A stretch of DNA of 64,000 bases from Parcubacteria group bacterium GW2011_GWD2_38_12 (GCA_000992345.1 LBUA01000001.1:81711-145710); one strand, 5' to 3'. Numbered from the stretch's first letter, positions 43 to 51,745 are shown. Numbers and translations: made by a program. The notes: generated from the sequence alone by a model not told the origin.

Positions 43-501
43 ATGTTAAATATGATAACATTCCAAGGACCCAAATCACACATTCATTCAATTGCTCGCG
101 GTCTTCTTGTACACGGAGAAGAAATTATACTATGCCGAGTAAAGGATGCTAAGTGGTTTTTTCTTCCCGGGGGACACATCGAGGATGGAGAATCAGCAAG
201 AACAGCGCTTTTGAGAGAATTGCACGAAGAAATCGGTAATAGTAATTATAAAATCAATTCTTTTATCGGTGTATGCGAAAACATCTTTTCACTGGAAAAA
301 AATGTTTTACAACACGAAATAAACATTATATTTAAAGTTCATGTCCCTAATGAATTAAAAGTTAATACCAAAGAAGATCATATTGAATTTGTAAGTATTG
401 CTAAAAATAATTTAAAAGATTATAAGATTTTACCTATCGCACTTAAAGATGGCCTTATTGAATGGTTAGAGAATGAAAAGCCATTCTTGAAGGAAATTTA
501 A
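43..501 (+). CDS. Nudix hydrolase
   Basis: Nudix box GGHIEDGESARTALLRELHEEIG (GX5EX7REUXEEXGU). First gene of a tightly packed co-directional six-gene block. Confidence 0.8.
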   Translation: MLNMITFQGPKSHIHSIARGLLVHGEEIILCRVKDAKWFFLPGGHIEDGESARTALLRELHEEIGNSNYKINSFIGVCENIFSLEKNVLQHEINIIFKVHVPNELKVNTKEDHIEFVSIAKNNLKDYKILPIALKDGLIEWLENEKPFLKEI

Positions 502-508
502 ATATGCT

Positions 509-1552
509 ATGTTTATTTGCCTCGAAGGTATTGCCGGTAGTGGAAAGACCACACAAACAAAACTACTTGCTGATTACCTAAAAAATGTAAAGGGAAAAGA
601 TATTTTTATAAGTGCTGTTTATGAAGGAGAACGCCGTAGTGTGGTCTCCGATTTTATGAATGCTTCAGGAATCAAGCTTGATCAGAATGCGGTAATGTTT
701 TTATTTCAAGCATTGCATGCGGCACAGTATCATGAAGTTAAGAACGCACTCAGTATCAATAAAACTGTTATAGCAGATAGATGGCGCTATTCTTTTTTTG
801 CACATCATGTATATCAAGACACTTTTGGTAAAAATGAAAATCTTATGTTCCAACTTGATTTACTTGCATACAGATCGTTAGAACCAGATATTTGTTTCCT
901 TATCGATATTCCAGCAAAGATTGCATATAACCGATACATAGAACGAGAGCGATCTATTAACGATAATGGTCTTGATTTGAGAATGGAAATGCTTAAAAAT
1001 ATCGAAAATCAATTCAAGCAAGATCATCTCAATTTTTACGGCATACAAGCAAGCGCAAAAGATTTGCCGATTACTGATGAATCTGTTGATTTTGTTCATC
1101 AAAGATTTGTATTGATGCATTTGTCGCCAGAAGATCAGAAAAGAGATATTAAAGAGGTTTTAAGGGTGGCTAAAGACAAGGTTTTCTTGTTGGAATACGA
1201 TTGGGAGACATTGAGTAGTAGAGAAAATGAGGACATTTTGAAAGAATTTAGGGATTTATCATTTCAGTTAATGGGAAAATCCAAAATAGATCCTTTTATG
1301 GGAGCTAAATTAGAGATGTTATTAGGGGAGGTTGGGCAAGGCTTAGATACTGATATTAAGAAATTTTCAAGGGAAGAATCGGATTATACCGATGAGTTGA
1401 TTGACCTGTGCGTGATATCCAATAAGATGGCAACAAGCATCTTGAAGGACGAAGATTTAGCCAGTAAATTTAGTGCATTAAGAGATAAATTGAGTAATAG
1501 TCATATTAAATTTACTCCACCGAGTATTGTCGCGGTGACCGTGAGAAAATAA
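509..1552 (+). CDS. Thymidylate kinase-like P-loop kinase with ~130-aa C-terminal extension of unknown function
   Basis: N-terminal LEGIAGSGKTT P-loop and DRWRYSFFAHHVYQ (DRY-like) motifs typical of the Tmk/dNK fold. At 347 aa it is much longer than Tmk (~210 aa). The C-terminal third has no recognisable motif. Confidence 0.55.
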   Translation: MFICLEGIAGSGKTTQTKLLADYLKNVKGKDIFISAVYEGERRSVVSDFMNASGIKLDQNAVMFLFQALHAAQYHEVKNALSINKTVIADRWRYSFFAHHVYQDTFGKNENLMFQLDLLAYRSLEPDICFLIDIPAKIAYNRYIERERSINDNGLDLRMEMLKNIENQFKQDHLNFYGIQASAKDLPITDESVDFVHQRFVLMHLSPEDQKRDIKEVLRVAKDKVFLLEYDWETLSSRENEDILKEFRDLSFQLMGKSKIDPFMGAKLEMLLGEVGQGLDTDIKKFSREESDYTDELIDLCVISNKMATSILKDEDLASKFSALRDKLSNSHIKFTPPSIVAVTVRK

Positions 1553-1586
1553 TTTTAATAATCAGCTATAAAATATAAAATAAGTA

Positions 1587-2663
1587 ATGAAAGGCATAGA
1601 ACAAGTTTATAAACCAATAATAATAAAGGATAAAAACAAATTAAACAGTTTACTGGAAGGCAAGCCGGACTTGGTTTTTGTGGATGCGTTTTCAAAGCAA
1701 TTGAAAGAATTGTTTTTTATTGACAATACTAAGTATATTGGCGAAGATAAAGAGAGTATTTATGGTAGCGATGAATTCAAAAAATATGCGGATAGTAAAG
1801 ATGGGCAATATCAATATTTCTATTATCCGTGGAATGGGCATATTGTTAAATGTATAAATGGAGAAGATTATTTTAGACTTAAAACGAATCGCAATCAGGA
1901 TTTAATTACCGCCAGCGAACAAATTAAATTATATAACTATAAAGTTGCCGTGTTCGGAATGAGTGTTGGTAGTAATATTGCCTTTGTCTTAACACAAGCA
2001 GGAATTTCAAAAAGAATAACGATAGCAGATTTTGACGAATTAGACACAACTAATTTAAATCGAATTTTAGCGGGGGTTCATCAGATCGGAGTTAATAAAA
2101 CAATAGTTGCAGCTAGAAGAATATACGAGGATAATCCGTATGCTGAAGTGAAAATTTTGCCTGACGGGATATCTGAAGATAAGCTTGAAGAGATGCTAAA
2201 AAATAAAGAAATTGACTGTATTGTAGAAGAGATTGATGATATTCGCGTGAAATTACAAACACGCATTCTGGCCATTAAATACAAGATTCCAGTAGTAATG
2301 ATTACTGATAATGGCGATGATGTAGTGCTACATATAGAGCGTTATGATTTGGGACATAATAAAATTTTCGGGAAAGAAGTTGAGTCTTGGCAAGAAAGAA
2401 TAAATAATAAAACGCCATTTACTAAAATGGAGGCAGGACAAATTATAATAGGAGATATTGTTGGCGGTTCAGACAAGGTGGATCCCAAAATGATGGCTTC
2501 GGTAAAAAGAGTATTGAATAAAGAGCTTGTGTCGTGGTCTCAGCTTGGAAGTGCGGCATTGCTGGGAGGTGTGGTTTCTACAGTGGCTATAAAAAGAATT
2601 GTTTTGGGAGAAACGAGAGATTTGGATATTAGGGAATATATTGGTGTTCCGAAATTTAAATAA
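1587..2663 (+). CDS. ThiF/MoeB/MccB-like E1 adenylyltransferase with N-terminal extension
   Basis: RLKTNRN...KVAVFGMSVGSNIA (glycine-rich nucleotide loop) and DFDELDTTNLNRI match the E1/ThiF ATP-binding signature. ~95 aa precede the E1 core. There is no obvious CxxC zinc tetrad. Confidence 0.7.
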   Translation: MKGIEQVYKPIIIKDKNKLNSLLEGKPDLVFVDAFSKQLKELFFIDNTKYIGEDKESIYGSDEFKKYADSKDGQYQYFYYPWNGHIVKCINGEDYFRLKTNRNQDLITASEQIKLYNYKVAVFGMSVGSNIAFVLTQAGISKRITIADFDELDTTNLNRILAGVHQIGVNKTIVAARRIYEDNPYAEVKILPDGISEDKLEEMLKNKEIDCIVEEIDDIRVKLQTRILAIKYKIPVVMITDNGDDVVLHIERYDLGHNKIFGKEVESWQERINNKTPFTKMEAGQIIIGDIVGGSDKVDPKMMASVKRVLNKELVSWSQLGSAALLGGVVSTVAIKRIVLGETRDLDIREYIGVPKFK

Positions 2664-2668
2664 ATTTT

Positions 2669-3724
2669 ATGATTGATTATTTGAATGAAAATAAGGATCT
2701 AATAGAAAAGTTGCCAGAATTTGATAACCATGAAGCAGTCAAGTATTTTGACGATCCCGTGTCTGGATTAAGAGGTTTTATTGCAATACATAGAAAAAAT
2801 CAATCTACGCCTTCTTTTGGGGCAACAAGGCTTTGGTCTTACTCAAATGATATTGACGCCCTCAAAGATGCTCTAGAGTTATCTAAAATGATGTCATATA
2901 AATCGGCTTTAGCCGGATTAAAATATGGTGGAGCAAAAGGAGTGATTATAGCGCCAAGAGGCAATTATGATAAAAACAACATTATGTCGGCGTATGCTGA
3001 TGTCGTAAACGAGATGAATGGGCAATTTATTACTGGCACTGATGTTGGATTGACATTGGCAGATATTAAATCAATTAAAGATAAATGCGATTATTTAGTA
3101 GGATTCAATGGCGACCCTACGGAATTTACGGTATTTGGATTATATTTTTCTATCAAATTATCTGTTAAGCGAATATTAAAAAAAGAATCACTGAGTGGAA
3201 TAAGTATTGCCATACAAGGAGTCGGAAAAATAGGAGGTGAATTGTTGAGGTTGATTTACGAAGATGCTGATAAAATATTTATTTCTGATACGGATAAATC
3301 ATTGACCGATTCAATGAAAAATAAATTTCCAAAAGTTGAAGTGGTAAGTCCCGATGAGATTCATAAGCAGGCTGTTGATATTTTTTCTCCTTGCGCCCTC
3401 GGACACTCATTAAATAATAAATCAGTTTCAGAGCTGAGATGCAAAATAGTAGCAGGAGGAGCGAACAATCAACTTGCTAGTGAAGATATTGGAGAGATAT
3501 TGCATAAAAATGGAATTTTGTATGCTCCTGACTATGTTGTTAATTTAGGAGGGTTGATTAGTGTAGTTGATGAATATGAAAATAGCGAATATGATGAACA
3601 ACGAATTTTAAAGAAGATTGAAAAAATCGGCGAAAATCTCGATAAAATTTTTGAGATAAGCGCAAATAATGATAAACCAACAAATATTGTCGCCAATGAA
3701 ATGGTTAAAAAAATAGTCGGATAA
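2669..3724 (+). CDS. Glu/Leu/Phe/Val-family amino acid dehydrogenase
   Basis: GATRLWSY and KYGGAKGVI catalytic-lysine motifs. Rossmann IQGVGKIGGEL in the C-terminal half. Length (351 aa) fits Leu/Val-type dehydrogenases. Confidence 0.7.
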   Translation: MIDYLNENKDLIEKLPEFDNHEAVKYFDDPVSGLRGFIAIHRKNQSTPSFGATRLWSYSNDIDALKDALELSKMMSYKSALAGLKYGGAKGVIIAPRGNYDKNNIMSAYADVVNEMNGQFITGTDVGLTLADIKSIKDKCDYLVGFNGDPTEFTVFGLYFSIKLSVKRILKKESLSGISIAIQGVGKIGGELLRLIYEDADKIFISDTDKSLTDSMKNKFPKVEVVSPDEIHKQAVDIFSPCALGHSLNNKSVSELRCKIVAGGANNQLASEDIGEILHKNGILYAPDYVVNLGGLISVVDEYENSEYDEQRILKKIEKIGENLDKIFEISANNDKPTNIVANEMVKKIVG

Positions 3725-3729
3725 TAAAT

Positions 3730-5253
3730 ATGGAAAAAATAAATTTTTTTAAATACCCAAAAAGCATAGAAAAAGAGATTTCTTTATTAAAATTTAAGCC
3801 ACCGTCATACTGGGAGAAAATTGGCGAAAAGAATGTGCTAGATATTTTTAAATATTCAGCAAAAACAGTGCCGGCTTATAAGAAATTTCTAAAAAAACAC
3901 AAAATTAACCCAAAAAATATAAAAATAATTGTAGATTTTAAAAAAATACCGCAAATCAGCAAGAAAAATTATATTAGAACCTCTGAGTTTATAGATCTTT
4001 TTCCCGATAGAGATATCTCTCACTTAACCACATTTTCTGCCACATCCGGATCTACCGGCGAGCCAACTTATTTTCCTCGCGGGGAGAATGGAGATAGTCA
4101 ATATGAATATATAGCGGAAATATTTTTGAGAAATCAGTTTGATATTTATAATAAAAAAACCCTCGGCATTGTAGGTTTTGGGTTGGGTATTTGGATTGGT
4201 GGCCTGTTTACTTATAAGAATTTTAATAAAATCGCGTCCAAAGGATGCCCCCTAGCGCTCATTCCCGTCGGACCAAACAAGGATCTCTATTTAAAATCAA
4301 TTTTGAAATTCGGGCACCTGTACGATCAAATTATTTTAATGGGATATGCTCCATTTATAAGAGATGTTATAGACGATGCTCCTACTTACGGTGTGGATTT
4401 TAAAAAATATAACATTAAGATTTTTACAGCTGCCGAAGGATATTCGGAAGAATTCAAAGATTATATTGCGGAAAAAACCGGAGTAAAAAATAAATTTACA
4501 GATATGGTAAATCTTTATGGCACGGTTGAATTGGGGACTATGGCCCACGAGACATCTTTTTCTAATTTAATTCGTGATATTGCTAATAAGAATATAGCCG
4601 TAAAAAAAGAATTATTTAAAGATAGATTGACATTGCCTACTTTAGCGCAATATTATCCGCATCTTACATATTTTGAAGAAATTAATGGTGAGGTTGTTGG
4701 ATCGGGAGCGTTTTCTATGCCTCTTTTAAGATATAGTTTTCCCGATGTAGGAGGGGTGATAAAATTTGACGAAATGATAGCCAAATTAAGATTGGTAGGG
4801 GTTGATGTAATAAAAGAGGCAAAAAAATACGGTATTGATAAAAAGATATTAAAACTTCCATTTGTCTATGTTTATGAGAGGGCGGATTTTACTATTGTGG
4901 TAAGGGGAGTAAATATTCATCCAGCGGAGATAAAGCATTCAATAGAAAATAAAGATTTTCAGGAGTATTTTACCGGGAAGTTTACATTAATTAAAAAATA
5001 TAATAAAAATTTTGATGAATATTTTGAAGTAAATATTGAAATGAAAAAAAATATTAAACCAAGCAAGGGGTTGAATAAAAAAATAAAGCAAGCCGTGGTA
5101 GAATATCTTAATAAGACAAATTCTGAATTTAATGATCAATATAGATCTGCGCCAAACAAAATAACTCCGAAAGTTATTTTTTGGTCATACCAGCATCATA
5201 GATACTTTCAATCAACCGCAAAACATAAATGGGCAGTGCATGATAATAAATAA
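3730..5253 (+). CDS. PaaK/CapK/F390-synthetase-like adenylate-forming enzyme
   Basis: AMP-binding core motif FSATSGSTGEPTYFPRG, with overall length and layout of COG1541 ligases. Confidence 0.65.
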   Translation: MEKINFFKYPKSIEKEISLLKFKPPSYWEKIGEKNVLDIFKYSAKTVPAYKKFLKKHKINPKNIKIIVDFKKIPQISKKNYIRTSEFIDLFPDRDISHLTTFSATSGSTGEPTYFPRGENGDSQYEYIAEIFLRNQFDIYNKKTLGIVGFGLGIWIGGLFTYKNFNKIASKGCPLALIPVGPNKDLYLKSILKFGHLYDQIILMGYAPFIRDVIDDAPTYGVDFKKYNIKIFTAAEGYSEEFKDYIAEKTGVKNKFTDMVNLYGTVELGTMAHETSFSNLIRDIANKNIAVKKELFKDRLTLPTLAQYYPHLTYFEEINGEVVGSGAFSMPLLRYSFPDVGGVIKFDEMIAKLRLVGVDVIKEAKKYGIDKKILKLPFVYVYERADFTIVVRGVNIHPAEIKHSIENKDFQEYFTGKFTLIKKYNKNFDEYFEVNIEMKKNIKPSKGLNKKIKQAVVEYLNKTNSEFNDQYRSAPNKITPKVIFWSYQHHRYFQSTAKHKWAVHDNK

Positions 5254-5256
5254 AAA

Positions 5257-6327
5257 ATGAACAAAGAAATAATCAATAAAATACTTGAAGTTGCAGTCAA
5301 TGCGCCATCTGGAGAAAATTCTCAGCCCTGGAGATTTGAAGTAAATAGCAATAAAATCCATATTTTTAATCTTCCAGAAAGAGATCGGTCGCTTTATAAT
5401 TTCGGACAAAAAGGATCTTTGGTTGCGCATGGAGCTTTGATTGAAAATATATTAATAACCGCTCCCATTTTTGGATATAATGCAGAAATAGATTTATTGC
5501 CGGATAATAAAGATTTTGACTTCATCGCCACCATTAGCCTTGTAGAATTATTGCCAGATCAGCAGAAAAATGAATCCCTTTATTCTTGTATTGTTAAAAG
5601 AGTAACGAATAGGAAGCCCTACAAAAATATACCCCTAAGCGATGAGCAGCTTAAAGATTTAAAAAATGTAGAAAATGAAATAGGGGAAGGTAGGGTTATC
5701 TTTGTTTATGATCCCGAAAAAATGAAAGATATTGCAAATTTATGCAGTGTCAACGAGCGAGTAATGTTTGAAAACAAACTCATTCACAATTTTTTCTTTG
5801 ATCATATTAATTGGACAGAAAAAGAAGAATTGGAAAAAAGATTGGGTTTTTATATAAAGACGCTTGAATTGCCATCCCCAGTCCAATTCGCATTAAAGTT
5901 GTTCAGGTATTGGCCAGCAATGAATCTGTTCAATAAATTGGGATTAAATAAAATTATAGCCAAGGGTAACGCGGTGAATTATGCCAATGCTTCGGCAATG
6001 GTTGCCTTTGCTGTAAAAAATAACACCTCTAGGGATTTTATCATTGCCGGAAGGTTAATGCAGAGGTTGTGGCTCAAGGTCACTAAGATGGGTCTAAGCG
6101 CTCAGCCTATGGCGGGGATGCTTTTTTTCATGCAAGCAATATCCGGTGGAGAAACTAGTAAATTTTCTTCATCACAAATTGAGCTAATAAAAAATGCTCA
6201 CGAAAACGTTAAAAAAACTTTTGACATTAACAATGAGATGCCTGTTATGATTTTCAGAGTCGGCTACGGCGGAGAGCCAAGCGCCAGATCGTCAAAAAAA
6301 CCTCCAGAAATTATCTTCAAGAATTGA
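5257..6327 (+). CDS. Nitroreductase-family flavoprotein (long form)
   Basis: N-terminal AVNAPSGENSQPWRF nitroreductase signature. At 356 aa it is far longer than the ~200-aa nitroreductase core. The C-terminal part (SAMVAFAV...RLMQRLWL...GLSAQPMAG) resembles the second half of the fold, so a large internal insertion is likely. An intrinsic terminator follows at 6383-6410. Confidence 0.65.
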   Translation: MNKEIINKILEVAVNAPSGENSQPWRFEVNSNKIHIFNLPERDRSLYNFGQKGSLVAHGALIENILITAPIFGYNAEIDLLPDNKDFDFIATISLVELLPDQQKNESLYSCIVKRVTNRKPYKNIPLSDEQLKDLKNVENEIGEGRVIFVYDPEKMKDIANLCSVNERVMFENKLIHNFFFDHINWTEKEELEKRLGFYIKTLELPSPVQFALKLFRYWPAMNLFNKLGLNKIIAKGNAVNYANASAMVAFAVKNNTSRDFIIAGRLMQRLWLKVTKMGLSAQPMAGMLFFMQAISGGETSKFSSSQIELIKNAHENVKKTFDINNEMPVMIFRVGYGGEPSARSSKKPPEIIFKN

Positions 6328-6382
6328 GCGCGATTTATTAAACAATGAATTACGGGGGCTATTAAATAACAAAATATAAAAA

Positions 6383-6410
6383 GACGGCTTGAAAACAGCC
6401 GTCTTTTTTT
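6383..6410 (+). terminator. Rho-independent terminator ending the 43-6327 operon
   Basis: GACGGCTTGAAAACAGCCGTC hairpin followed by a T7 run. Confidence 0.7.
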
Positions 6411-6456: not shown

Positions 6457-8103
6457 ATGATAATTTCTCCGGAAATCAGCTTTATTTCTGTAATGATAAT
6501 GATTGTTGCGATCGGTATTTTAGGTTTTTTGGTGTTTTTTAGTAATCGCAAAAGTGCAACAAATAAAGCTTTTTTGTTTTTTTCTACAATGACGATTGTT
6601 TGGAGTTTGTTTAATTATTTAAGTTACCAATTTAGTTCATCGAATTTTATTTTATGGACTCTGCGTTTAGTGATGTTTTCTGCGGTATGGCAAGTGTTCA
6701 GTATTTTTACTTTGTTTTATGTTGCACCACAAGAAAAAGTGATATTCCCCAGATTATATAAATTTTGCATTGTTCCCTTGGTAATTATTGTTTCTATTCT
6801 TACTTTAACGCCAGTTATTTTTAGGGGAATAAAAAAACTAGCTCCAGCTGGACAATCTTCAGTGATGGATATTGCTCCAGGAATAATATTTTTTGGTCTA
6901 TTGTCTATTGGGTTAACAGTAGTCGGATTTTTTATTTTAATTAAAAAAATCATCAATAGAAAAGGGGCTGAAAGAACCCAATTGGTATTTTTATTAATAG
7001 GAGCATTAATATTTTTTGTATTTCTCATCTTATTTAATTTTATATTGCCAGCATTTTTTGATAATCCTAGGTTCACTCCTTTAGGTGCAATATTTGCATT
7101 TCCGTTTATCGCCCTCACATCCTACGCGATTCTAAAGCACGGTCTTTTTAATGTAAAAGTCATTGCCACCGAATTACTGTCTTTTGCTATTTGGATCGCA
7201 GTATTGGCACAGTTTTTGATGGCCAATACACTCAATGATAGACTATTAAGCGGGGGCGTATTTGTTTTTGTGGTAATTTTTGGAATATTCCTTATTCGCA
7301 GCGTGAAGAAAGAAGTTTCGCAGCGTGAAGAATTAGAAGAGCTGACTCATGAATTAAAGCATGCCAATGAGGAGCTCAAGCAAATAGATAAAGTAAAATC
7401 GGAATTTATCTCTATTGTGTCTCATCAGCTACGCACTCCTTTATCTATTACCAAAGGATATGTATCAATGATTTTGGAAAATATTTATGGCGAGGTAAGT
7501 GATAAGATAAAAAATGTTTTGCAGAAAGTTTATGTATCAAACGAGGGATTGATTGCGCTTGTGAATAATTTGCTGGATTTATCGCGTATGGAGGCGGGCA
7601 CGATCAAATATGAGTTTACCAACGAATCTTTTGAAAAAATGGTTGATGAGATAGTAATGGAACTTGAGCTTGAGGCAAAACATAGAGACCTTTGGTTGCG
7701 CTGGAATAAACCGAAAAAGCCAATGCCCCTTATTAAAGCAGATGGTATAAAATTGAAACAAGTTATTGAAATTTTAATTGAAAACTCTTTGAAATACACC
7801 CCCAAAGGCGGAGTTGATGTTAGCTTAGGGAAAGATGGTGATGCGTTATTGTTTAAAGTCAAAGACACCGGCATAGGCGTAGATTCTAAAGAACTTGGTC
7901 ACTTATTCAATAAATTTGGCAGGGGATCGGAAGGAAGCAAAGTCAATGTTACCGGAGTTGGTCTTGGTCTTTATGCGGCCAAGCAAATTGTCCTTGCTCA
8001 TGGCGGTCAAATTTGGGTGGAATCCGAAGGTATTAAAAAAGGCAGTACTTTCTGCGTGAAGTTGCCCCTTGATTCTACTCAGGTCAAGCCGACGGTCACA
8101 TGA
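6457..8103 (+). CDS. Membrane-bound sensor histidine kinase
   Basis: About 7-8 N-terminal TM helices, a coiled coil, the H-box SHQLRTPLSITKGY, and HATPase G-boxes DTGIGV / GVGLGLY. Confidence 0.85.
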   Translation: MIISPEISFISVMIMIVAIGILGFLVFFSNRKSATNKAFLFFSTMTIVWSLFNYLSYQFSSSNFILWTLRLVMFSAVWQVFSIFTLFYVAPQEKVIFPRLYKFCIVPLVIIVSILTLTPVIFRGIKKLAPAGQSSVMDIAPGIIFFGLLSIGLTVVGFFILIKKIINRKGAERTQLVFLLIGALIFFVFLILFNFILPAFFDNPRFTPLGAIFAFPFIALTSYAILKHGLFNVKVIATELLSFAIWIAVLAQFLMANTLNDRLLSGGVFVFVVIFGIFLIRSVKKEVSQREELEELTHELKHANEELKQIDKVKSEFISIVSHQLRTPLSITKGYVSMILENIYGEVSDKIKNVLQKVYVSNEGLIALVNNLLDLSRMEAGTIKYEFTNESFEKMVDEIVMELELEAKHRDLWLRWNKPKKPMPLIKADGIKLKQVIEILIENSLKYTPKGGVDVSLGKDGDALLFKVKDTGIGVDSKELGHLFNKFGRGSEGSKVNVTGVGLGLYAAKQIVLAHGGQIWVESEGIKKGSTFCVKLPLDSTQVKPTVT

Positions 8104-8167
8104 TAAATTGCTTCAATTTTATTATTTTGATAGTATAAAACTGGCTATTAGTGCCAGTTTTATTTTT

Positions 8168-9595
8168 ATGCTGAAATTTTATAACACTCTTACCAGGAAA
8201 AAACAGCTATTCAAGCCAATAAAAGATAGAAAAGTTTTGATGTATTCTTGCGGACCGACGGCGTATAACTATGTTCATATAGGTAATTTACGCGCCTATA
8301 TTTTTGTTGATATTTTGAAGCGTTATTTGCAATATTCCGGATACAGCGTGAAGCATGTTATGAATATCACTGACGTGGATGATAAAACCATCAGAGATAG
8401 CAGAAAAGCGGGAAAGTCTCTGAAAGAATTTACAAAATTTTATGAGAAAGAGTTTGTAAGTGATTTAAGATCTATGAATATTGAAATGCCCGATGTGATG
8501 CCAAGGGCTACGGATTATATTTTCGAAATGGTCAAAATAATAAAAAGGTTGGAGACGAAGGGTTTGGCATATAGATCCGACGGATCAATTTATTTTAAAA
8601 TATCTAAATCTAAAAATTACGGGCAACTGGCTGGACTGGAAAAACGGACATTAAGAGAAAATGCCAGCGGAAGATTGAGTATTGATGACGAATATAAAAA
8701 AGAAGATATCAATGATTTTGTTTTGTGGAAAGAGTGGCGTCCCGAAGACGGAGACGTGTATTGGGACACTGAGATTGGTCGTGGTCGTCCAGGTTGGCAT
8801 ATTGAGTGTTCGGCTATGTCGATAAAAAATCTAGGGGAGACATTTGATATTCATTGCGGCGGCGAAGATTTGATTTTCCCCCATCATACCAATGAAATTG
8901 CTCAGTCTGAAGGCGTAACCGGTAAAAAATTCGTGAATTATTGGCTGCATAACGCGCATTTGTTGGTGGATGGTCAAAAAATGTCCAAATCTCTCGGAAA
9001 TTTTTATACATTAAAAGACGTGATTAAAAAGGGGTATAACCCACTGTTTCTGAAGATAATTTTAATCAAGACTCATTATCGGCATATTTTGGATTTTAAT
9101 TTTAATAATTTTATTGAAGTTAAATCAATTGCCGAGAAATTAATAAATTTTCTTTTTAATTTGGATTTAATAGAAAATAACGGTAAAAATAAAGTGGATA
9201 TTGATAAATTAATCGGCAATTGCGAAAAGGAATTCAGGAAAGCGATGGATGACGATTTAAATATCAGCGAAGCGTTGGCAAAGATATTTAATTTTATAAA
9301 TGAGGTGAATAAATCCATTGATTCTATAAATTTTCAGCAGGCCGGTAAAATCAGGAAATTTATTTTAAAGATTGACGGGGTTTTGGGATTTATTGAGAAA
9401 ATTTACGATAATTATTTAATTAAATTGGGAAATAAAATAAAAGATACCGGGGTCGGGGAGTTGTTGAAAAAAAGAGAAGAGGCGAGAGGGAGCGGGGATT
9501 ATCGGGAGTCGGATATTTTGAGGGATAAAATTCAATCGCTAGGATTTTTATTGGAAGACACAAAAAGCGGTTCTGTGTTAAAATTAAAAGAGTGA
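8168..9595 (+). CDS. cysS: Cysteinyl-tRNA synthetase
   Basis: CGPTAYNYVHIGNLR (HIGH) and KMSKSLGN motifs. The track ORF starts at 8069 overlapping the upstream kinase. The ATG at 8168 (MLKFYN...) is the likely start. Confidence 0.85.
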   Translation: MLKFYNTLTRKKQLFKPIKDRKVLMYSCGPTAYNYVHIGNLRAYIFVDILKRYLQYSGYSVKHVMNITDVDDKTIRDSRKAGKSLKEFTKFYEKEFVSDLRSMNIEMPDVMPRATDYIFEMVKIIKRLETKGLAYRSDGSIYFKISKSKNYGQLAGLEKRTLRENASGRLSIDDEYKKEDINDFVLWKEWRPEDGDVYWDTEIGRGRPGWHIECSAMSIKNLGETFDIHCGGEDLIFPHHTNEIAQSEGVTGKKFVNYWLHNAHLLVDGQKMSKSLGNFYTLKDVIKKGYNPLFLKIILIKTHYRHILDFNFNNFIEVKSIAEKLINFLFNLDLIENNGKNKVDIDKLIGNCEKEFRKAMDDDLNISEALAKIFNFINEVNKSIDSINFQQAGKIRKFILKIDGVLGFIEKIYDNYLIKLGNKIKDTGVGELLKKREEARGSGDYRESDILRDKIQSLGFLLEDTKSGSVLKLKE

Positions 9596-9669
9596 TAAGG
9601 GTTTGTGGGTGCGAAAGAACATAGAATTGAAAATTTAGTTTAATAATATTTTCAAAGTAACTCGCATAA

Positions 9670-10698
<1,029 letters not shown>

Positions 10699-10706
10699 AA
10701 AAGTTA

Positions 10707-10742
10707 ACAGAAAATCGCGGGAATGTCGCCGCGATTTTCTGT
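10707..10742 (+). terminator. Intrinsic terminator after trpS
   Basis: ACAGAAAATCGCGG/CCGCGATTTTCTGT 14-bp stem. Confidence 0.6.
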
Positions 10743-10829
10743 TACTGACTTTTAGTATTTATTATGTTAAAATATAAATAAATGCGAGTTTTTTATAGGT
10801 ATTTGGTGGTATATTATTTTAATTCCTAA

Positions 10830-13127
10830 TTGTCATTTTGCATTTTGCATTTTGACTTTTACATTTTCACGGTGTCCATAATTACAAAATTTATTATTCT
10901 TTTCGTCATCATTTTTTCTATTATTTCTTTCGGTGTTTTTTATTTTTTACTCGGTTATTCGGAAATTAATTTAAAAAAACAAGTATTTGAAGATTTGACC
11001 GTACTCGCTGAGGCGGAAGAGGGTTTTATTATAACTTTTTTAGAGCAAATAAAGGGCAGAGCAGTTGATTTTAGCAGTGACGGATTGATTCGTGAGAGCG
11101 TTGAAAAAATTATTACAGTGAAAAATCAACCCCAAGATATTGTCAATGAATTAAATGTCCATTTACGAAACAATAAGCAAAGCATTGACCCCACGATATT
11201 GGGAATTTTGATTATTGATACCAATGGAAAAGTTATAGCCAGTACCGACGAAAGAGAAATCGGATTTGATGAGTCAGTTGATGAGTATTTTAAAAATCTC
11301 TCCCAAACCAATCTGACTTATGGGTCGGTATATATATCGGATGTATTTATTGCTTCTCATTTTAACACAAGGGATCCGGTTTTAATGGTTGCCGCGCCTC
11401 TTTTCACCGTGGATAAAAGTATTAAGTTGGGATATATAATGAATGAAATTTCTCTATCCGAGATCAATAAAGTTTTAAGCGGGCAAAAACAAATTGAACT
11501 CGGAGCATTGACCGGAACCAGAGGACGTAGAACGACTCTAAATATATATTTAGTTAATAAAGATGGCTTGTTAATTACGCCCTCAATTTACGAAAATGAA
11601 GGACTATTAAAACAACAAATTGATTCACCTCTCGTTGAAGCTTGTCGCCGCAAAGAAGAAACAACCTCTATTTATAAAAATCATTTAGGCATAGAAGTTT
11701 TAGGGGCTTCTATGTGCTTGCCGACGCACGGCTGGACTTTGGTCGTAGGGCTATCAAGCGAAGAAGCTTTTTCTGTAATTTCTGATTTAAGAAAAGAAGT
11801 TTTAATTTCCGGGTCTGTTTTGCTGGTTATTTTGATAATTATCGCGGTATTATTTTTATATTATTTTATTATTCGGAATATTTTAAATTTAAAGCGTGGC
11901 GCAAAAATTATAGGCGCAGGCAATTTTGATTATGAAATAAAATTAGAATCAAAAGATGAATTTGGAGATTTGGCCAATGATTTTAATATAATGACTAGAA
12001 AATTGAGGGAATTGTTTGGTGACATTAAGGCATCTTCTTTAAAAATAAAAGAATCGGAAGAAAAATATAAAATCATGTTTAATGGCGCTGTTGATGCAAT
12101 TTTTATATCTGATGCTGAGGGAAATTTTTTAGAAGTGAATGAAAATGCAATAAGAATGACCGGATATAAAGCGGGTGAATTGTTGGCAATGAATCACCTC
12201 CAGATTTACAGCAAGGAAGATATGGCAAGGTGCCAAGAGCAATTTAAGGTTGCTTTGCAAAAAAACATTTGTTTTATTGAAAATGTCAGTATTTTGAAAA
12301 AAAATAATCAGATTTTGCCGGTGGATATCGGCATCAGTTTATTGAGATACGGCAATAAAGAATTCCTGCAGTTTATAGTGCGCGATGTTTCGGAAAGAGT
12401 GGCATTAGAAGAGCATCATAAAGAGATAGACCATATTAAATCGCAATTTATCAATGTCGTATCTCATCAATTGCGAACGCCGTTAAATTCCATTCGTTGG
12501 AATCTGGAGGTGCTGCTTGGCGGCGATATCGGGTCATTTAAAAAAGATCAGGAAAAGTTTCTTAAGACTGTGTATCTTAATAATCAGAATATCATAAATA
12601 TCATTTCGGATTTATTTTTGGCGCTTGAGATAGAGGAGACGGAAATCGGACTTAAAAAGGAGGCAGTGGATATAGAAGCGTTATTGAGTTCTGTTGCCGA
12701 GGGATTTAAAAATAGTTTGGCCATAAAGCGCATCAAATTGGAAGTTGGTAAGCTAAAAAGCGGAAAAATTATAAACGTGGATGGCGATAAGGATAAATTA
12801 ACTCAGGTTTTCTCAAGATTAATAGATAATGCGGTTAAGTATAGCAAAGAAGATAGCAAAATTACTATTAAGATTGAAAAAATTGATAATAGCGCGGTGG
12901 TATCTTTCATTGATAGTGGCATAGGAATCCCCGTGGGGGAACATCCAGCTTTATTTAGTAAGTTTTTCAGGGCGTCCAATGCGGCTGTTATGCATCCGAA
13001 TGCTTCCGGATTGGGACTTTTTATATCCAAGAAAATAATTGAAGCGCATCACGGAAAAATTTGGTTTGTTTCAACAGAGGGCAAGGGCACGACATTTTTT
13101 GTGAGTTTGCCCAGTAGTGAATTTTGA
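10830..13127 (+). CDS. Sensor histidine kinase (TM, periplasmic sensor, HAMP, PAS, HisKA, HATPase)
   Basis: Two TM segments flank a ~280-aa extracytoplasmic domain. HAMP-like linker, PAS (FISDAEGNFLEVNENAIRMTGY), H-box SHQLRTPLNSIRWN, and G-boxes DSGIGIP / GLGLFISKKII. Confidence 0.85.
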   Translation: MSFCILHFDFYIFTVSIITKFIILFVIIFSIISFGVFYFLLGYSEINLKKQVFEDLTVLAEAEEGFIITFLEQIKGRAVDFSSDGLIRESVEKIITVKNQPQDIVNELNVHLRNNKQSIDPTILGILIIDTNGKVIASTDEREIGFDESVDEYFKNLSQTNLTYGSVYISDVFIASHFNTRDPVLMVAAPLFTVDKSIKLGYIMNEISLSEINKVLSGQKQIELGALTGTRGRRTTLNIYLVNKDGLLITPSIYENEGLLKQQIDSPLVEACRRKEETTSIYKNHLGIEVLGASMCLPTHGWTLVVGLSSEEAFSVISDLRKEVLISGSVLLVILIIIAVLFLYYFIIRNILNLKRGAKIIGAGNFDYEIKLESKDEFGDLANDFNIMTRKLRELFGDIKASSLKIKESEEKYKIMFNGAVDAIFISDAEGNFLEVNENAIRMTGYKAGELLAMNHLQIYSKEDMARCQEQFKVALQKNICFIENVSILKKNNQILPVDIGISLLRYGNKEFLQFIVRDVSERVALEEHHKEIDHIKSQFINVVSHQLRTPLNSIRWNLEVLLGGDIGSFKKDQEKFLKTVYLNNQNIINIISDLFLALEIEETEIGLKKEAVDIEALLSSVAEGFKNSLAIKRIKLEVGKLKSGKIINVDGDKDKLTQVFSRLIDNAVKYSKEDSKITIKIEKIDNSAVVSFIDSGIGIPVGEHPALFSKFFRASNAAVMHPNASGLGLFISKKIIEAHHGKIWFVSTEGKGTTFFVSLPSSEF

Positions 13128-49913: not shown

Positions 49914-50186
49914 TAAAGATTTAGTGTTGACAAGTTTATAATTTCGACTAAAATATAAATCTATTCCATTAAATTCAAATAGTTGGGTTAAGTAGTTCAA
50001 CCGCGAAGACTTTTACTATATGAAAGTCTTCGCGGTTGTGTTATTCATAAAGACATAACCGAAGAGTTTTTTAAAAAATAAATAGTTAATTGAGAGTCCA
50101 AATTTTTATAGTTGTTCCGAATAAAAATCCTCTTTTTTATTTATAAAAACGAGGTAGATTTCATTTGAGCAATGAAATCTTCTAGT

Positions 50187-51745
<1,559 letters not shown>

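Follow-up and report, generated by a model that had tools for sequence, protein, structure and literature searches.

A candidate oxazolone-type pathway, with a PaaK-like ligase and a linked sensor kinase, conserved across bacteria of the candidate phyla radiation

What is the product of a set of closely packed genes, belonging to no recognizable housekeeping operon, in a groundwater bacterium of the candidate phyla radiation (CPR)? The question is raised by the start of a 64,000-nucleotide stretch of the genome of Parcubacteria group bacterium GW2011_GWD2_38_12 (GCA_000992345.1, LBUA01000001.1:81711-145710), which we refer to throughout as the window. Six genes, here g1 to g6, are followed by a sensor histidine kinase gene, g7 (Table 1), and the same operon is found in at least five independent assemblies. 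A sequence-only reading of this DNA had taken the six genes as one unit and had suggested an undescribed pathway to a nucleotide conjugate of an amino acid or peptide. The answer at which we have arrived is a different one: that positions 1587-6327 encode a four-enzyme, ATP-driven route to an oxazolone (azlactone) derived from an N-acyl amino acid, or to a close derivative of one, and that these enzymes form, with the seven-transmembrane (7TM) kinase, a module conserved across CPR bacteria. We give this answer slightly better than an even chance of being right.

The argument begins with the E1-like protein of g3 and the long nitroreductase (NTR) of g6 which, by homology, are a split form of a known enzyme, the oxazolone synthetase made up of a ThiF domain and a flavin oxidase (FDO) and described as OxzB, TyzBC or TrzS (= Rv1355c). 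Rv1355c, now named TrzS, is a ThiF-cyclase/flavin-oxidase fusion that cyclizes and desaturates N-acyl-tryptophan (PMC12856293). TyzB and TyzC cyclize and desaturate N-acyl-tyrosine (PMC10404671), as does OxzB of Pseudoalteromonas rubra (bioRxiv 10.1101/2020.06.11.147165). Common to all three systems is that the N-acyl aromatic amino acid is adenylated on its carboxylate and cyclized by the ThiF part (PMC10404671; PMC12856293; bioRxiv 10.1101/2020.06.11.147165). The product that characterizes such systems is a 4-arylidene-2-alkyl-oxazol-5-one.

The g3 protein matches the NCBIfam model NF005901, ‘Rv1355c family’, with 218 bits (E 2e-64, profile positions 22-325 of 722), and the next-best ThiF model reaches 65 bits. 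The score lies below the cut-off of 476 for a full-length Rv1355c-family protein, g3 covering only half of the model. The ThiF and MoeB models give 36-65 bits against cut-offs of 152-633, and the neighborhoods of related loci hold no conserved small protein family that could provide a ThiS/MoaD-like partner. The other half of the fusion is found in g6, which matches PRK14851, a family of 679-aa ThiF-NTR fusions, with 247 bits over positions 324-666 of 679; the Rv1355c family with 189 bits over positions 374-714 of 722; and the Acg family with 144 bits, Acg (2ymv) being also its top sequence match in the PDB. It is a single-chain double NTR fold, equal to the C-terminal half of the TrzS/OxzB-type fusions. 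When g3 and g6 are concatenated, they align colinearly and end to end, at ~22-30% identity, with a 718-aa Rv1355c-family protein encoded on a Mycobacterium dioxanotrophicus plasmid, and this alignment takes in the N-terminal extension of ~100 aa in g3 with its WxYYPW and RTNRN..IT..EQ motifs. In a plasmid collection, the tblastn matches of the ThiF and NTR proteins were almost all actinomycete proteins annotated ‘Rv1355c family protein’.

The conservation extends to individual residues. The ATP-site Asp of the EExDD motif, D217 in g3, aligns with D199 of the M. dioxanotrophicus protein, and the Arg and Gln of the FDO, R168 and Q283 in g6, align with its R522 and Q635. In TrzS, the residues that have been mutated are Asp217, Arg540 and Gln651 in Mycobacterium smegmatis numbering (PMC12856293); assuming an offset of 16-18 residues between the mycobacterial proteins, these are probably the same three positions. 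Taken together, profile matches and alignment place g3 in the TrzS/OxzB/TyzB clade and suggest that g6 is the FDO that adjoins or is fused to its ThiF partner.

The closest solved structure to g3 by sequence is TcdA (E 4e-8), the tRNA t6A dehydratase, which uses ATP to cyclize an N-acylated amino-acid moiety, forming an oxazolone (PMC12596934), as we propose for g3; unlike g3, it acts on tRNA, has no N-terminal extension and no FDO partner, and sits in another genomic context. An AlphaFold2 (AF2) model of g3 (pLDDT 92) retrieves AclA, ThiF, PaaA, MoeB, MccB and TcdA with Foldseek, through the Rossmann domain only. AclA of Tenacibaculum discolor, solved with its substrate (PDB 9egb/9egc, released in 2025), ranks first among the structural matches of g3 and second among its sequence matches, and its chemistry might prove informative.

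Is the pair part of a larger conserved unit? One genome per GTDB species was scanned using an alignment of the PaaK-like protein encoded by g5 as the anchor, which yielded 80 loci. The presence of each window protein in these was scored by tblastn, all of their 1328 open reading frames (ORFs) were clustered de novo, and a well-flanked subset was formed by the 43 loci that extend 5 kb or more to both sides. The titles of the loci are mostly Patescibacteria/CPR, with some automatically labelled metagenome-assembled genomes under other names, and the lineages include Paceibacteria, Magasanikbacteria, Doudnabacteria, Woesebacteria, Roizmanbacteria, Gottesmanbacteria and Saccharimonadales, among others. 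ThiF is present in 74 of the 80 loci, a homologue of the 7TM kinase in 69, NTR in 59 and the ELFV dehydrogenase of g4 in 52. The Nudix protein of g1 and the Tmk part of g2 were detected in none, and the methyltransferase part of g2 in one. De novo clustering returned the same five families and two others, one of receiver-only response regulators, seen in 26 loci, and one of class I/II aminotransferases, seen in 10. Within the well-flanked subset, ThiF is found in 41/43 loci, the kinase in 40/43, either the ELFV dehydrogenase or the aminotransferase in 36/43, NTR in 34/43 and the regulator in 22/43. There are 27 distinct gene arrangements among these 43 loci, and foreign genes within clusters number just 11 in total: alpha/beta hydrolases, one methyltransferase, one HutH and three unassigned ORFs of 50-266 aa. 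The conserved unit is thus g3-g6 together with the kinase at 6457-8103, and g1 and g2 are outside it.

Natural fusions tie the four enzymes together, and it is for this reason that we treat g3-g6 as one pathway. We found a PaaK::ThiF fusion (P0276, 863 aa), a ThiF::PaaK fusion (P0339, 880 aa), two ELFV::PaaK fusions (P0054 and P0306; 847 and 878 aa), an ELFV::PaaK::ThiF fusion (P0337, 1242 aa) and ThiF::NTR fusions in five CPR loci (L046, L054, L062, L073 and L081). The fusions thereby connect the four into a chain that runs from dehydrogenase through ligase and cyclase to oxidase. Because some well-flanked loci lack NTR or both dehydrogenase and aminotransferase, the invariant core comprises only the ligase, ThiF and the kinase.

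In the known clusters, the partner of ThiF-FDO is an N-acyltransferase with the FeeM/acyl-homoserine-lactone-synthase fold that depends on acyl-CoA (PMC10404671, PMC12856293). No such protein was found here: a phmmer search with the FeeM domain had no match among the 1328 ORFs, no FeeM or GNAT match was obtained with Pfam for any of the six window proteins, and none of the 11 non-core genes inside the clusters encodes an acyltransferase. What the clusters have instead is g5. This protein has no Pfam match and scores 45.8 bits against the PaaK equivalog TIGR02155, whose cut-off is 646. Its AF2 model (pLDDT 89) matches PaaK1 (2y27/2y4n) in Foldseek with E 1e-23 and a template modelling (TM) score of 0.80, and the next neighbors are the PaaK-family ligases NatL2 and ClxA, which we take to form ester or amide bonds without coenzyme A (CoA). 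With PaaK1/2, and with NatL2 and ClxA of benzoxazole pathways, g5 shares the two-domain ANL fold, the P-loop-like motif and the C-terminal catalytic Lys, but the identity is ~15% and g5 is ~80 residues longer. The motif SATSGSTGEP and the C-terminal Lys498 are invariant in the g5 family, for which 785 representative clusters at E <= 1e-30 were collected when 1.84 billion representative proteins (50% identity clusters) were searched with a profile. On the basis of position, being fused to ThiF where other lineages have FeeM or GNAT, g5 appears to occupy the slot of the N-acyl-amino-acid synthase, and most likely takes the place of the FeeM/OxzA acyltransferase.

Two plasmid-borne proteins illustrate the arrangement in other lineages. 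On plasmid pDV of Desulfovibrio vulgaris Hildenborough (L088, 5162-8131), a 989-aa FeeM::ThiF::NTR triple fusion of the PRK14852 type, labelled ‘ThiF family adenylyltransferase’, would hold the whole oxazolone pathway in one polypeptide and sits among genes of the PEP-CTERM/XrtA system. Its N-acyl-amino-acid synthase comes just before ThiF, in parallel to the CPR PaaK::ThiF and ELFV::PaaK::ThiF proteins; it differs from them in having a FeeM-type acyltransferase domain rather than an adenylating ligase. On a Streptomyces sp. NBC_01431 plasmid (L094, 4993-7907), a 622-aa protein joins a weak GNAT match to a TrzS-clade ThiF, with no NTR; a KAS III gene follows directly, and a lipase and a methyltransferase are nearby. 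This GNAT::ThiF protein may be another unexplored variant.

The fourth enzyme, g4, is a dehydrogenase whose best PDB relatives are the leucine dehydrogenase (LeuDH) 6acf (E 1e-73) and the tryptophan dehydrogenase 5b37. It reaches 292 bits with the ScyB-like tryptophan dehydrogenase model, below the cut-off of 600. At the two pocket positions that separate phenylalanine dehydrogenases (PheDH) from LeuDH, it has Gly (in TGTD) and Leu (in GGL), as do 46/50 and 41/50 family members, respectively. These residues hint at a bulky or aromatic substrate, like those of all known oxazolones. In 10 loci, the gene is replaced by the class I/II aminotransferase, which is divergently transcribed in Saccharimonadales-like loci; since this displacement is non-orthologous, the role of g4 is read as the interconversion of an amino acid and its 2-oxo acid.

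Other genes at related loci touch on the same chemistry. One cluster (L022) with neither dehydrogenase nor aminotransferase has a histidine ammonia-lyase at 3511-5040 (hutH equivalog, 663 bits against a cut-off of 539), between an NTR fragment and the NTR gene; this single case is a hint that favors the 2-oxo or deaminated acid as the acyl donor over the amino acid as the acceptor. An alpha/beta hydrolase occurs as a separate accessory gene in L013, L014, L046, L054, L061, L076 and L095, and as a fusion to ThiF in L051 and to NTR in L019 and L057; a second type is found in L031 and L034. These hydrolases, of which the window cluster has none, could serve in ring opening or acyl transfer.

A pathway can be proposed from these parts. 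In a first step, g4 would provide g5 with one of its substrates by interconverting a probably bulky or aromatic amino acid and the corresponding 2-oxo acid; the aminotransferase would do so in some lineages. To judge from its position, its fusions and the CoA-independent precedents in the PaaK family, g5 would then activate a carboxylic acid as the acyl-AMP and couple it to an amino acid, giving an N-acyl amino acid. The carboxylate of this product would be adenylated by g3, upon which the amide oxygen would shut the oxazolone ring, and the FDO of g6 would finally desaturate the C-alpha/C-beta bond. For these last two steps, the homology was computed here and the chemistry has been demonstrated for the homologues in the literature.

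What, then, is the kinase doing there? A homologue of g7 lies 3' of the enzyme genes in nearly all well-flanked loci despite the many rearrangements of the enzyme genes themselves, and it is linked to the enzymes (40/43) as tightly as they are to one another. About half of the loci also have a CheY-like regulator beside the cluster, and all of these regulators are receiver-only proteins of 87-181 aa with no DNA-binding output domain. A protein search with the sensor domain of g7 gave 28 matches, mostly fragments, of which the closest (P0123, 55% identity, Wolfebacteria) is within a cluster that runs response regulator, PaaK, ThiF, NTR and, further on, histidine kinase. In the four contexts that were read, only close relatives of the sensor domain are associated with the cluster. 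Going by linkage, the kinase and the regulator would most likely sense the product or a related cue, so making up a signal synthase with its receptor. The authors of the TrzAS work have speculated that oxazolones are signals, and genes for cyclic di-GMP adjoin trzAS (PMC12856293). The linkage in CPR bacteria is an independent hint, not proof, that the oxazolone product acts as a signal. The fuller version of this idea, a self-contained signalling system in which a CoA-independent set of synthases makes an oxazolone-type autoinducer that is read by the 7TM kinase and CheY-like regulator, is one we put forward only tentatively, thinking it rather less probable than not.

Some further kinase contexts deserve mention. 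Distant HisKA_7TM kinases of CPR bacteria lie near PlsC-type acyltransferase genes in L089 (2122-8476) and L090 (1990-6765), the former also with an aminotransferase. In the plasmid collection, the sole relative of g5 outside CPR comes from Nonomuraea gerenzanensis (L093, NZ_LT559118.1; 32% identity, E 5e-61). There, an apparent operon at 6729-12678 encodes a histidine kinase (HisKA_3), a LuxR-type response regulator, the ligase and a 734-aa protein with a weak peptidoglycan-binding match; no ThiF or NTR was found nearby. The other strand carries a second two-component pair, an RR-SpoIIE response regulator and a hybrid histidine kinase, and the record has a second g5 match. A ligase beside a histidine kinase is suggestive for the signalling idea, as a single case.

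Before turning to g1 and g2, we set out what weighs against the oxazolone pathway proposed above. Without the acyltransferase that defines the known clusters, what g3 acts on is itself a prediction, and g5 could be an ordinary CoA ligase. The NTR gene is missing in ~20% of well-flanked loci, and ~15% have neither dehydrogenase nor aminotransferase. Equating D217, R540 and Q651 of TrzS with the aligned positions leans on the assumed offset, and there is a divergent NTR subtype (21-27% identity) without the Arg and Gln positions. Known FDOs use O2, and many groundwater CPR bacteria are thought to be anaerobic. As for the kinase, three distant HisKA_7TM kinases among the four contexts read sit without the cluster, a terminator separates g7 from g6 in this genome, making it a neighbor rather than a member of the operon, and linkage alone is no demonstration that the kinase senses the product.

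The two remaining genes have a history of their own. The Nudix gene g1 is a lineage-specific passenger outside the conserved module. Moving 2.6 kb upstream of g1 on the source contig, one meets a response regulator of the family associated with the cluster, which is why we place g1 and g2 in a variable stretch: g1 is within the ~4.5 kb that separate this regulator from the cluster. Directly upstream of g1, and just before window position 1 (~8004-8408 in L001/L003), a 65-aa Nudix fragment and, in one assembly, a 64-aa RNHCP fragment are further signs of rearrangement in the stretch.

In g2, Pfam finds Thymidylate_kin at residues 5-172 and Methyltransf_11 at residues 154-224, the latter with profile positions 23-90 of 95 only; the match to the Tmk equivalog TIGR00041 (73.4 bits against a cut-off of 83.25) stops at profile position 171 of 196. 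The explanation comes from a sibling genome, GCA_001775855.1 (L005), which matches the window at 100% identity from position 971 on. Upstream of the equivalent of position 971, it has an intact 260-aa class-I methyltransferase with the S-adenosylmethionine (SAM)-binding motif I, FLDVGAGSNS, and one end of its contig matches window 813-984 and then runs into a normal Tmk C-terminus. Both of these sequences share CTTGATTTGA, a 10-nt microhomology that is the very point, ~975-984, at which the window switches from tmk to methyltransferase. Between the tmk 3' end (1-310) and the methyltransferase gene (4486-5268), the sibling contig holds ~4.5 kb with a 439-aa ORF, a second methyltransferase, a polysaccharide deacetylase and a second Nudix gene. 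Because the two intact genes meet in the window at this shared sequence, g2 is best read as a deletion chimera: residues 1-~156 come from Tmk, the rest corresponds to residues 67-260 of a class-I SAM methyltransferase, and the Tmk C-terminus, the methyltransferase motif I and the ~4.5 kb of genes lying between have been lost. Five independent assemblies carry the chimera, and its product is probably non-functional. We also considered L005 as a variant operon with a different second gene and dropped the idea, as it keeps the ancestral tmk and methyltransferase genes.

These results change the picture drawn by the sequence-only reading in several respects. Its domain calls were right for the Nudix protein, the N-terminal part of Tmk, ThiF with an extension, the ELFV dehydrogenase, the PaaK-like protein and the long NTR, and two details have been corrected: the ‘unknown 130-aa domain’ after Tmk is the class-I SAM methyltransferase minus motif I, and the extension of g3, said to have the architecture of MccB, is homologous to the N-terminus of Rv1355c/TrzS and not to the MccB clamp. 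Its six-gene unit is now a smaller and a larger one, g1 and g2 dropping out and the kinase coming in. It had named unlinked, scattered homologues in related genomes as the observation that would count against the unit; across the 80 loci, this is not the pattern of g3-g6, which stay together, and it does count against g1 and g2.

The nucleotide-amino-acid conjugate, to be made by the Nudix protein, the Tmk-like kinase and the two adenylating enzymes, draws on the fact that the genes are co-oriented and probably co-transcribed here. As a conserved system it is refuted, and on the whole it now seems to us barely credible: the Nudix and Tmk proteins are those absent from all 80 related loci, the Tmk equivalog score stays under its cut-off (73 against 83 bits), and g2 is a chimera lacking the Tmk C-terminus and motif I, both genes being intact and 4.5 kb apart in the sibling strain. 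The same reading had seen a likeness to microcin C and to azole-peptide (TOMM) clusters, and a related explanation is that a ribosomal peptide or protein is modified in the manner of MccB or of the TOMM and E1 systems, ThiF adenylating the C-terminus and the NTR-fold enzyme oxidizing a heterocycle. ThiF-family enzymes do act mostly on the C-termini of peptides and proteins (PMC12596934), and MccB, PaaA and AclA are among the structural matches of g3. Against this, the MccB match comprises the Rossmann domain only (~260 columns, TM 0.47 normalized to MccB), in sequence, MccB is matched at residues 112-189 only, and the N-terminal extension is one common to the small-molecule TrzS-type enzymes. 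No YcaO and no ThiS/MoaD-like gene lies in the window operon or inside the related clusters, the spacers in the window are just 3-34 nt, and no small ORF (18-70 aa) common to any two of 78 cluster loci was found, though very short or fast-evolving ones could escape such a comparison. We regard peptide modification as very unlikely and the likenesses to microcin C and TOMM clusters as not upheld.

Two other explanations keep the conserved enzymes and change their purpose, and we judge both to be unlikely, to a similar degree. In one, an aromatic or branched-chain amino acid is catabolized or salvaged by the cluster, deamination being followed by conversion of the resulting acid into a CoA thioester by the PaaK-like enzyme, as in phenylacetate catabolism; ThiF and NTR would perform an accessory step, and the two-component system would induce the operon when substrate is present. 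Phenylacetate-CoA ligases are indeed the nearest characterized relatives of g5, the dehydrogenase, the aminotransferase and the HutH-type lyase of L022 all deaminate amino acids, and substrate-sensing kinases commonly adjoin catabolic operons. Yet no paa genes were found in any of the loci, nor other paa-type or beta-oxidation genes in any cluster; g5 is far under the PaaK cut-off (46 against 646 bits) and several proteins fuse such a ligase to ThiF; the ThiF and NTR proteins belong to the oxazolone-synthetase clade, biosynthetic in every case studied; and the receiver-only regulators lack the output domain with which to bind DNA. In the other, the products are N-acyl (dehydro)amino-acid lipids or oxazolones with a function in the envelope or in protection from stress, as has been proposed for the C12 tyrazolones of Mycobacterium tuberculosis, and the kinase is an envelope-stress sensor. 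Here the enzyme homology is the same as for the oxazolone pathway that we prefer, and the accessory alpha/beta hydrolases could generate N-acyl dehydroamino acids by opening the ring. CPR bacteria, however, are generally without fatty-acid synthesis; the PaaK-like pocket and the PheDH-like feeder indicate small aromatic acids rather than long acyl chains; and the linkage of the kinase is no weaker than that between the enzymes. In favor of the lipid explanation, the role of oxazolones has been left open in the literature, and the tyz genes are linked to tolerance of oxidative stress (PMC10404671, PMC12856293).

How new is the proposed oxazolone pathway when set beside its known relatives? The nearest are TrzAS (Rv1356c/Rv1355c) and TyzACB (Rv2336-2338c) of M. 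tuberculosis, for tryptazolone and tyrazolone biosynthesis. Like g3 and g6, they combine a ThiF cyclase with an FDO, fused in TrzS and encoded by adjacent genes in TyzB/TyzC, CPR relatives being in part fused too; g3 and g6 resemble the Rv1355c family in the shared N-terminal domain, the ATP-site Asp and the FDO Arg and Gln. The CPR cluster differs in lacking TrzA/TyzA, in having a PaaK-family ligase and a dehydrogenase or aminotransferase, in lying beside a 7TM histidine kinase and CheY-like regulator, and in its host, which is not an actinomycete. OxzAB of P. rubra performs ThiF-nitroreductase di-domain chemistry on an N-acyl amino acid, as g3 and g6 would, but OxzB is one fused protein with the acyltransferase OxzA, and ligase, dehydrogenase and kinase partners are not described there; the 56 OxzB homologues reported were all proteobacterial (bioRxiv 10.1101/2020.06.11.147165). 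The pathway is thus not wholly undescribed, as had been claimed: the pairing of ThiF and NTR was known (PMC10404671, PMC12856293), and what is new is the swap of a ligase for the acyltransferase, the dehydrogenase or aminotransferase feeder, and the conserved 7TM kinase with its CheY-like regulator. This architecture is not mentioned in the literature that we searched, including the OxzB, TyzB/TyzC and TrzS papers and the 2025 ThiF review. In coupling genes for small-molecule biosynthesis to a polytopic membrane histidine kinase, the CPR module resembles agrBDCA and cqsA/cqsS; the analogy is functional only, and the components are not homologous.

The layout of the locus itself is as the sequence-only reading had it: the ORF map confirms six co-directional genes from the start of the window on, with spacers of 7, 34, 5, 5 and 3 nt and a single terminator, and the mixture of enzymes is indeed not that of a housekeeping operon. 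The terminator, a strong one, has a hairpin of 12 bp with G+C pairs, which spans 6378-6408 and leads into a T7 tract ending at 6410 (AAAAAGACGGCT-tgaaaac-AGCCGTCTTTTT, then more T residues). In this genome, g1 and g2 are probably passengers co-transcribed with the enzyme genes. A PADLOC scan of the six proteins returned generic similarities to E1, Tmk and Nudix proteins only and no assignment to a defence system. Elsewhere in the window, a complete bacterial 16S rRNA gene lies at 50180-51745; Rfam has no 23S or 5S match anywhere in the 64 kb, and the rRNA genes are apparently unlinked.

Table 1. Genes and terminator at the start of the window, with the evidence for each assignment
Feature	Position	Strand	Size and evidence
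g1, Nudix hydrolase	43-501	+	152 aa; Pfam NUDIX E 1e-13
g2, Tmk/methyltransferase chimeric ORF	509-1552	+	347 aa; Pfam Thymidylate_kin + Methyltransf_11
g3, ThiF-family cyclase, TrzS/OxzB (Rv1355c) type	1587-2663	+	358 aa; NCBIfam NF005901
g4, NAD(P)-dependent amino-acid dehydrogenase, Leu/Phe/Trp type	2669-3724	+	351 aa; Pfam ELFV_dehydrog_N, ELFV_dehydrog
g5, PaaK-family adenylate-forming ligase (predicted)	3730-5253	+	507 aa; AF2 model + Foldseek
g6, long nitroreductase-fold (NTR) flavin oxidase (FDO), predicted	5257-6327	+	356 aa; NCBIfam PRK14851, Rv1355c family, Acg family
Intrinsic terminator ending the enzyme operon	6378-6410	+	hairpin then T tract
g7, sensor histidine kinase, 7TM N-terminal domain	6457-8103	+	Pfam HisKA_7TM (14-233), HisKA, HATPase_c

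Oxazolone synthetases were reported between 2021 and 2025 from proteobacteria and mycobacteria, with their physiological role left unresolved (PMC12856293). The locus described here would extend the ThiF-FDO pair to CPR bacteria, which have minimal metabolism and few known specialized-metabolite pathways, and would provide an alternative, probably CoA-free, route to the N-acyl amino-acid substrate. The family is large, with its hundreds of representative clusters for the ligase alone, and a set of four small genes and one kinase is experimentally tractable. The near-obligate linkage to a two-component system offers a genomic clue, independent of the earlier work, that oxazolone-type molecules act as signals, and the cluster could thereby bear on the open question of what oxazolones are for. 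If the signalling reading is true, the candidate phyla radiation would have its first defined pathway dedicated to signals between cells or between symbiont and host, and the purpose of bacterial oxazolones would have its first genomic answer.

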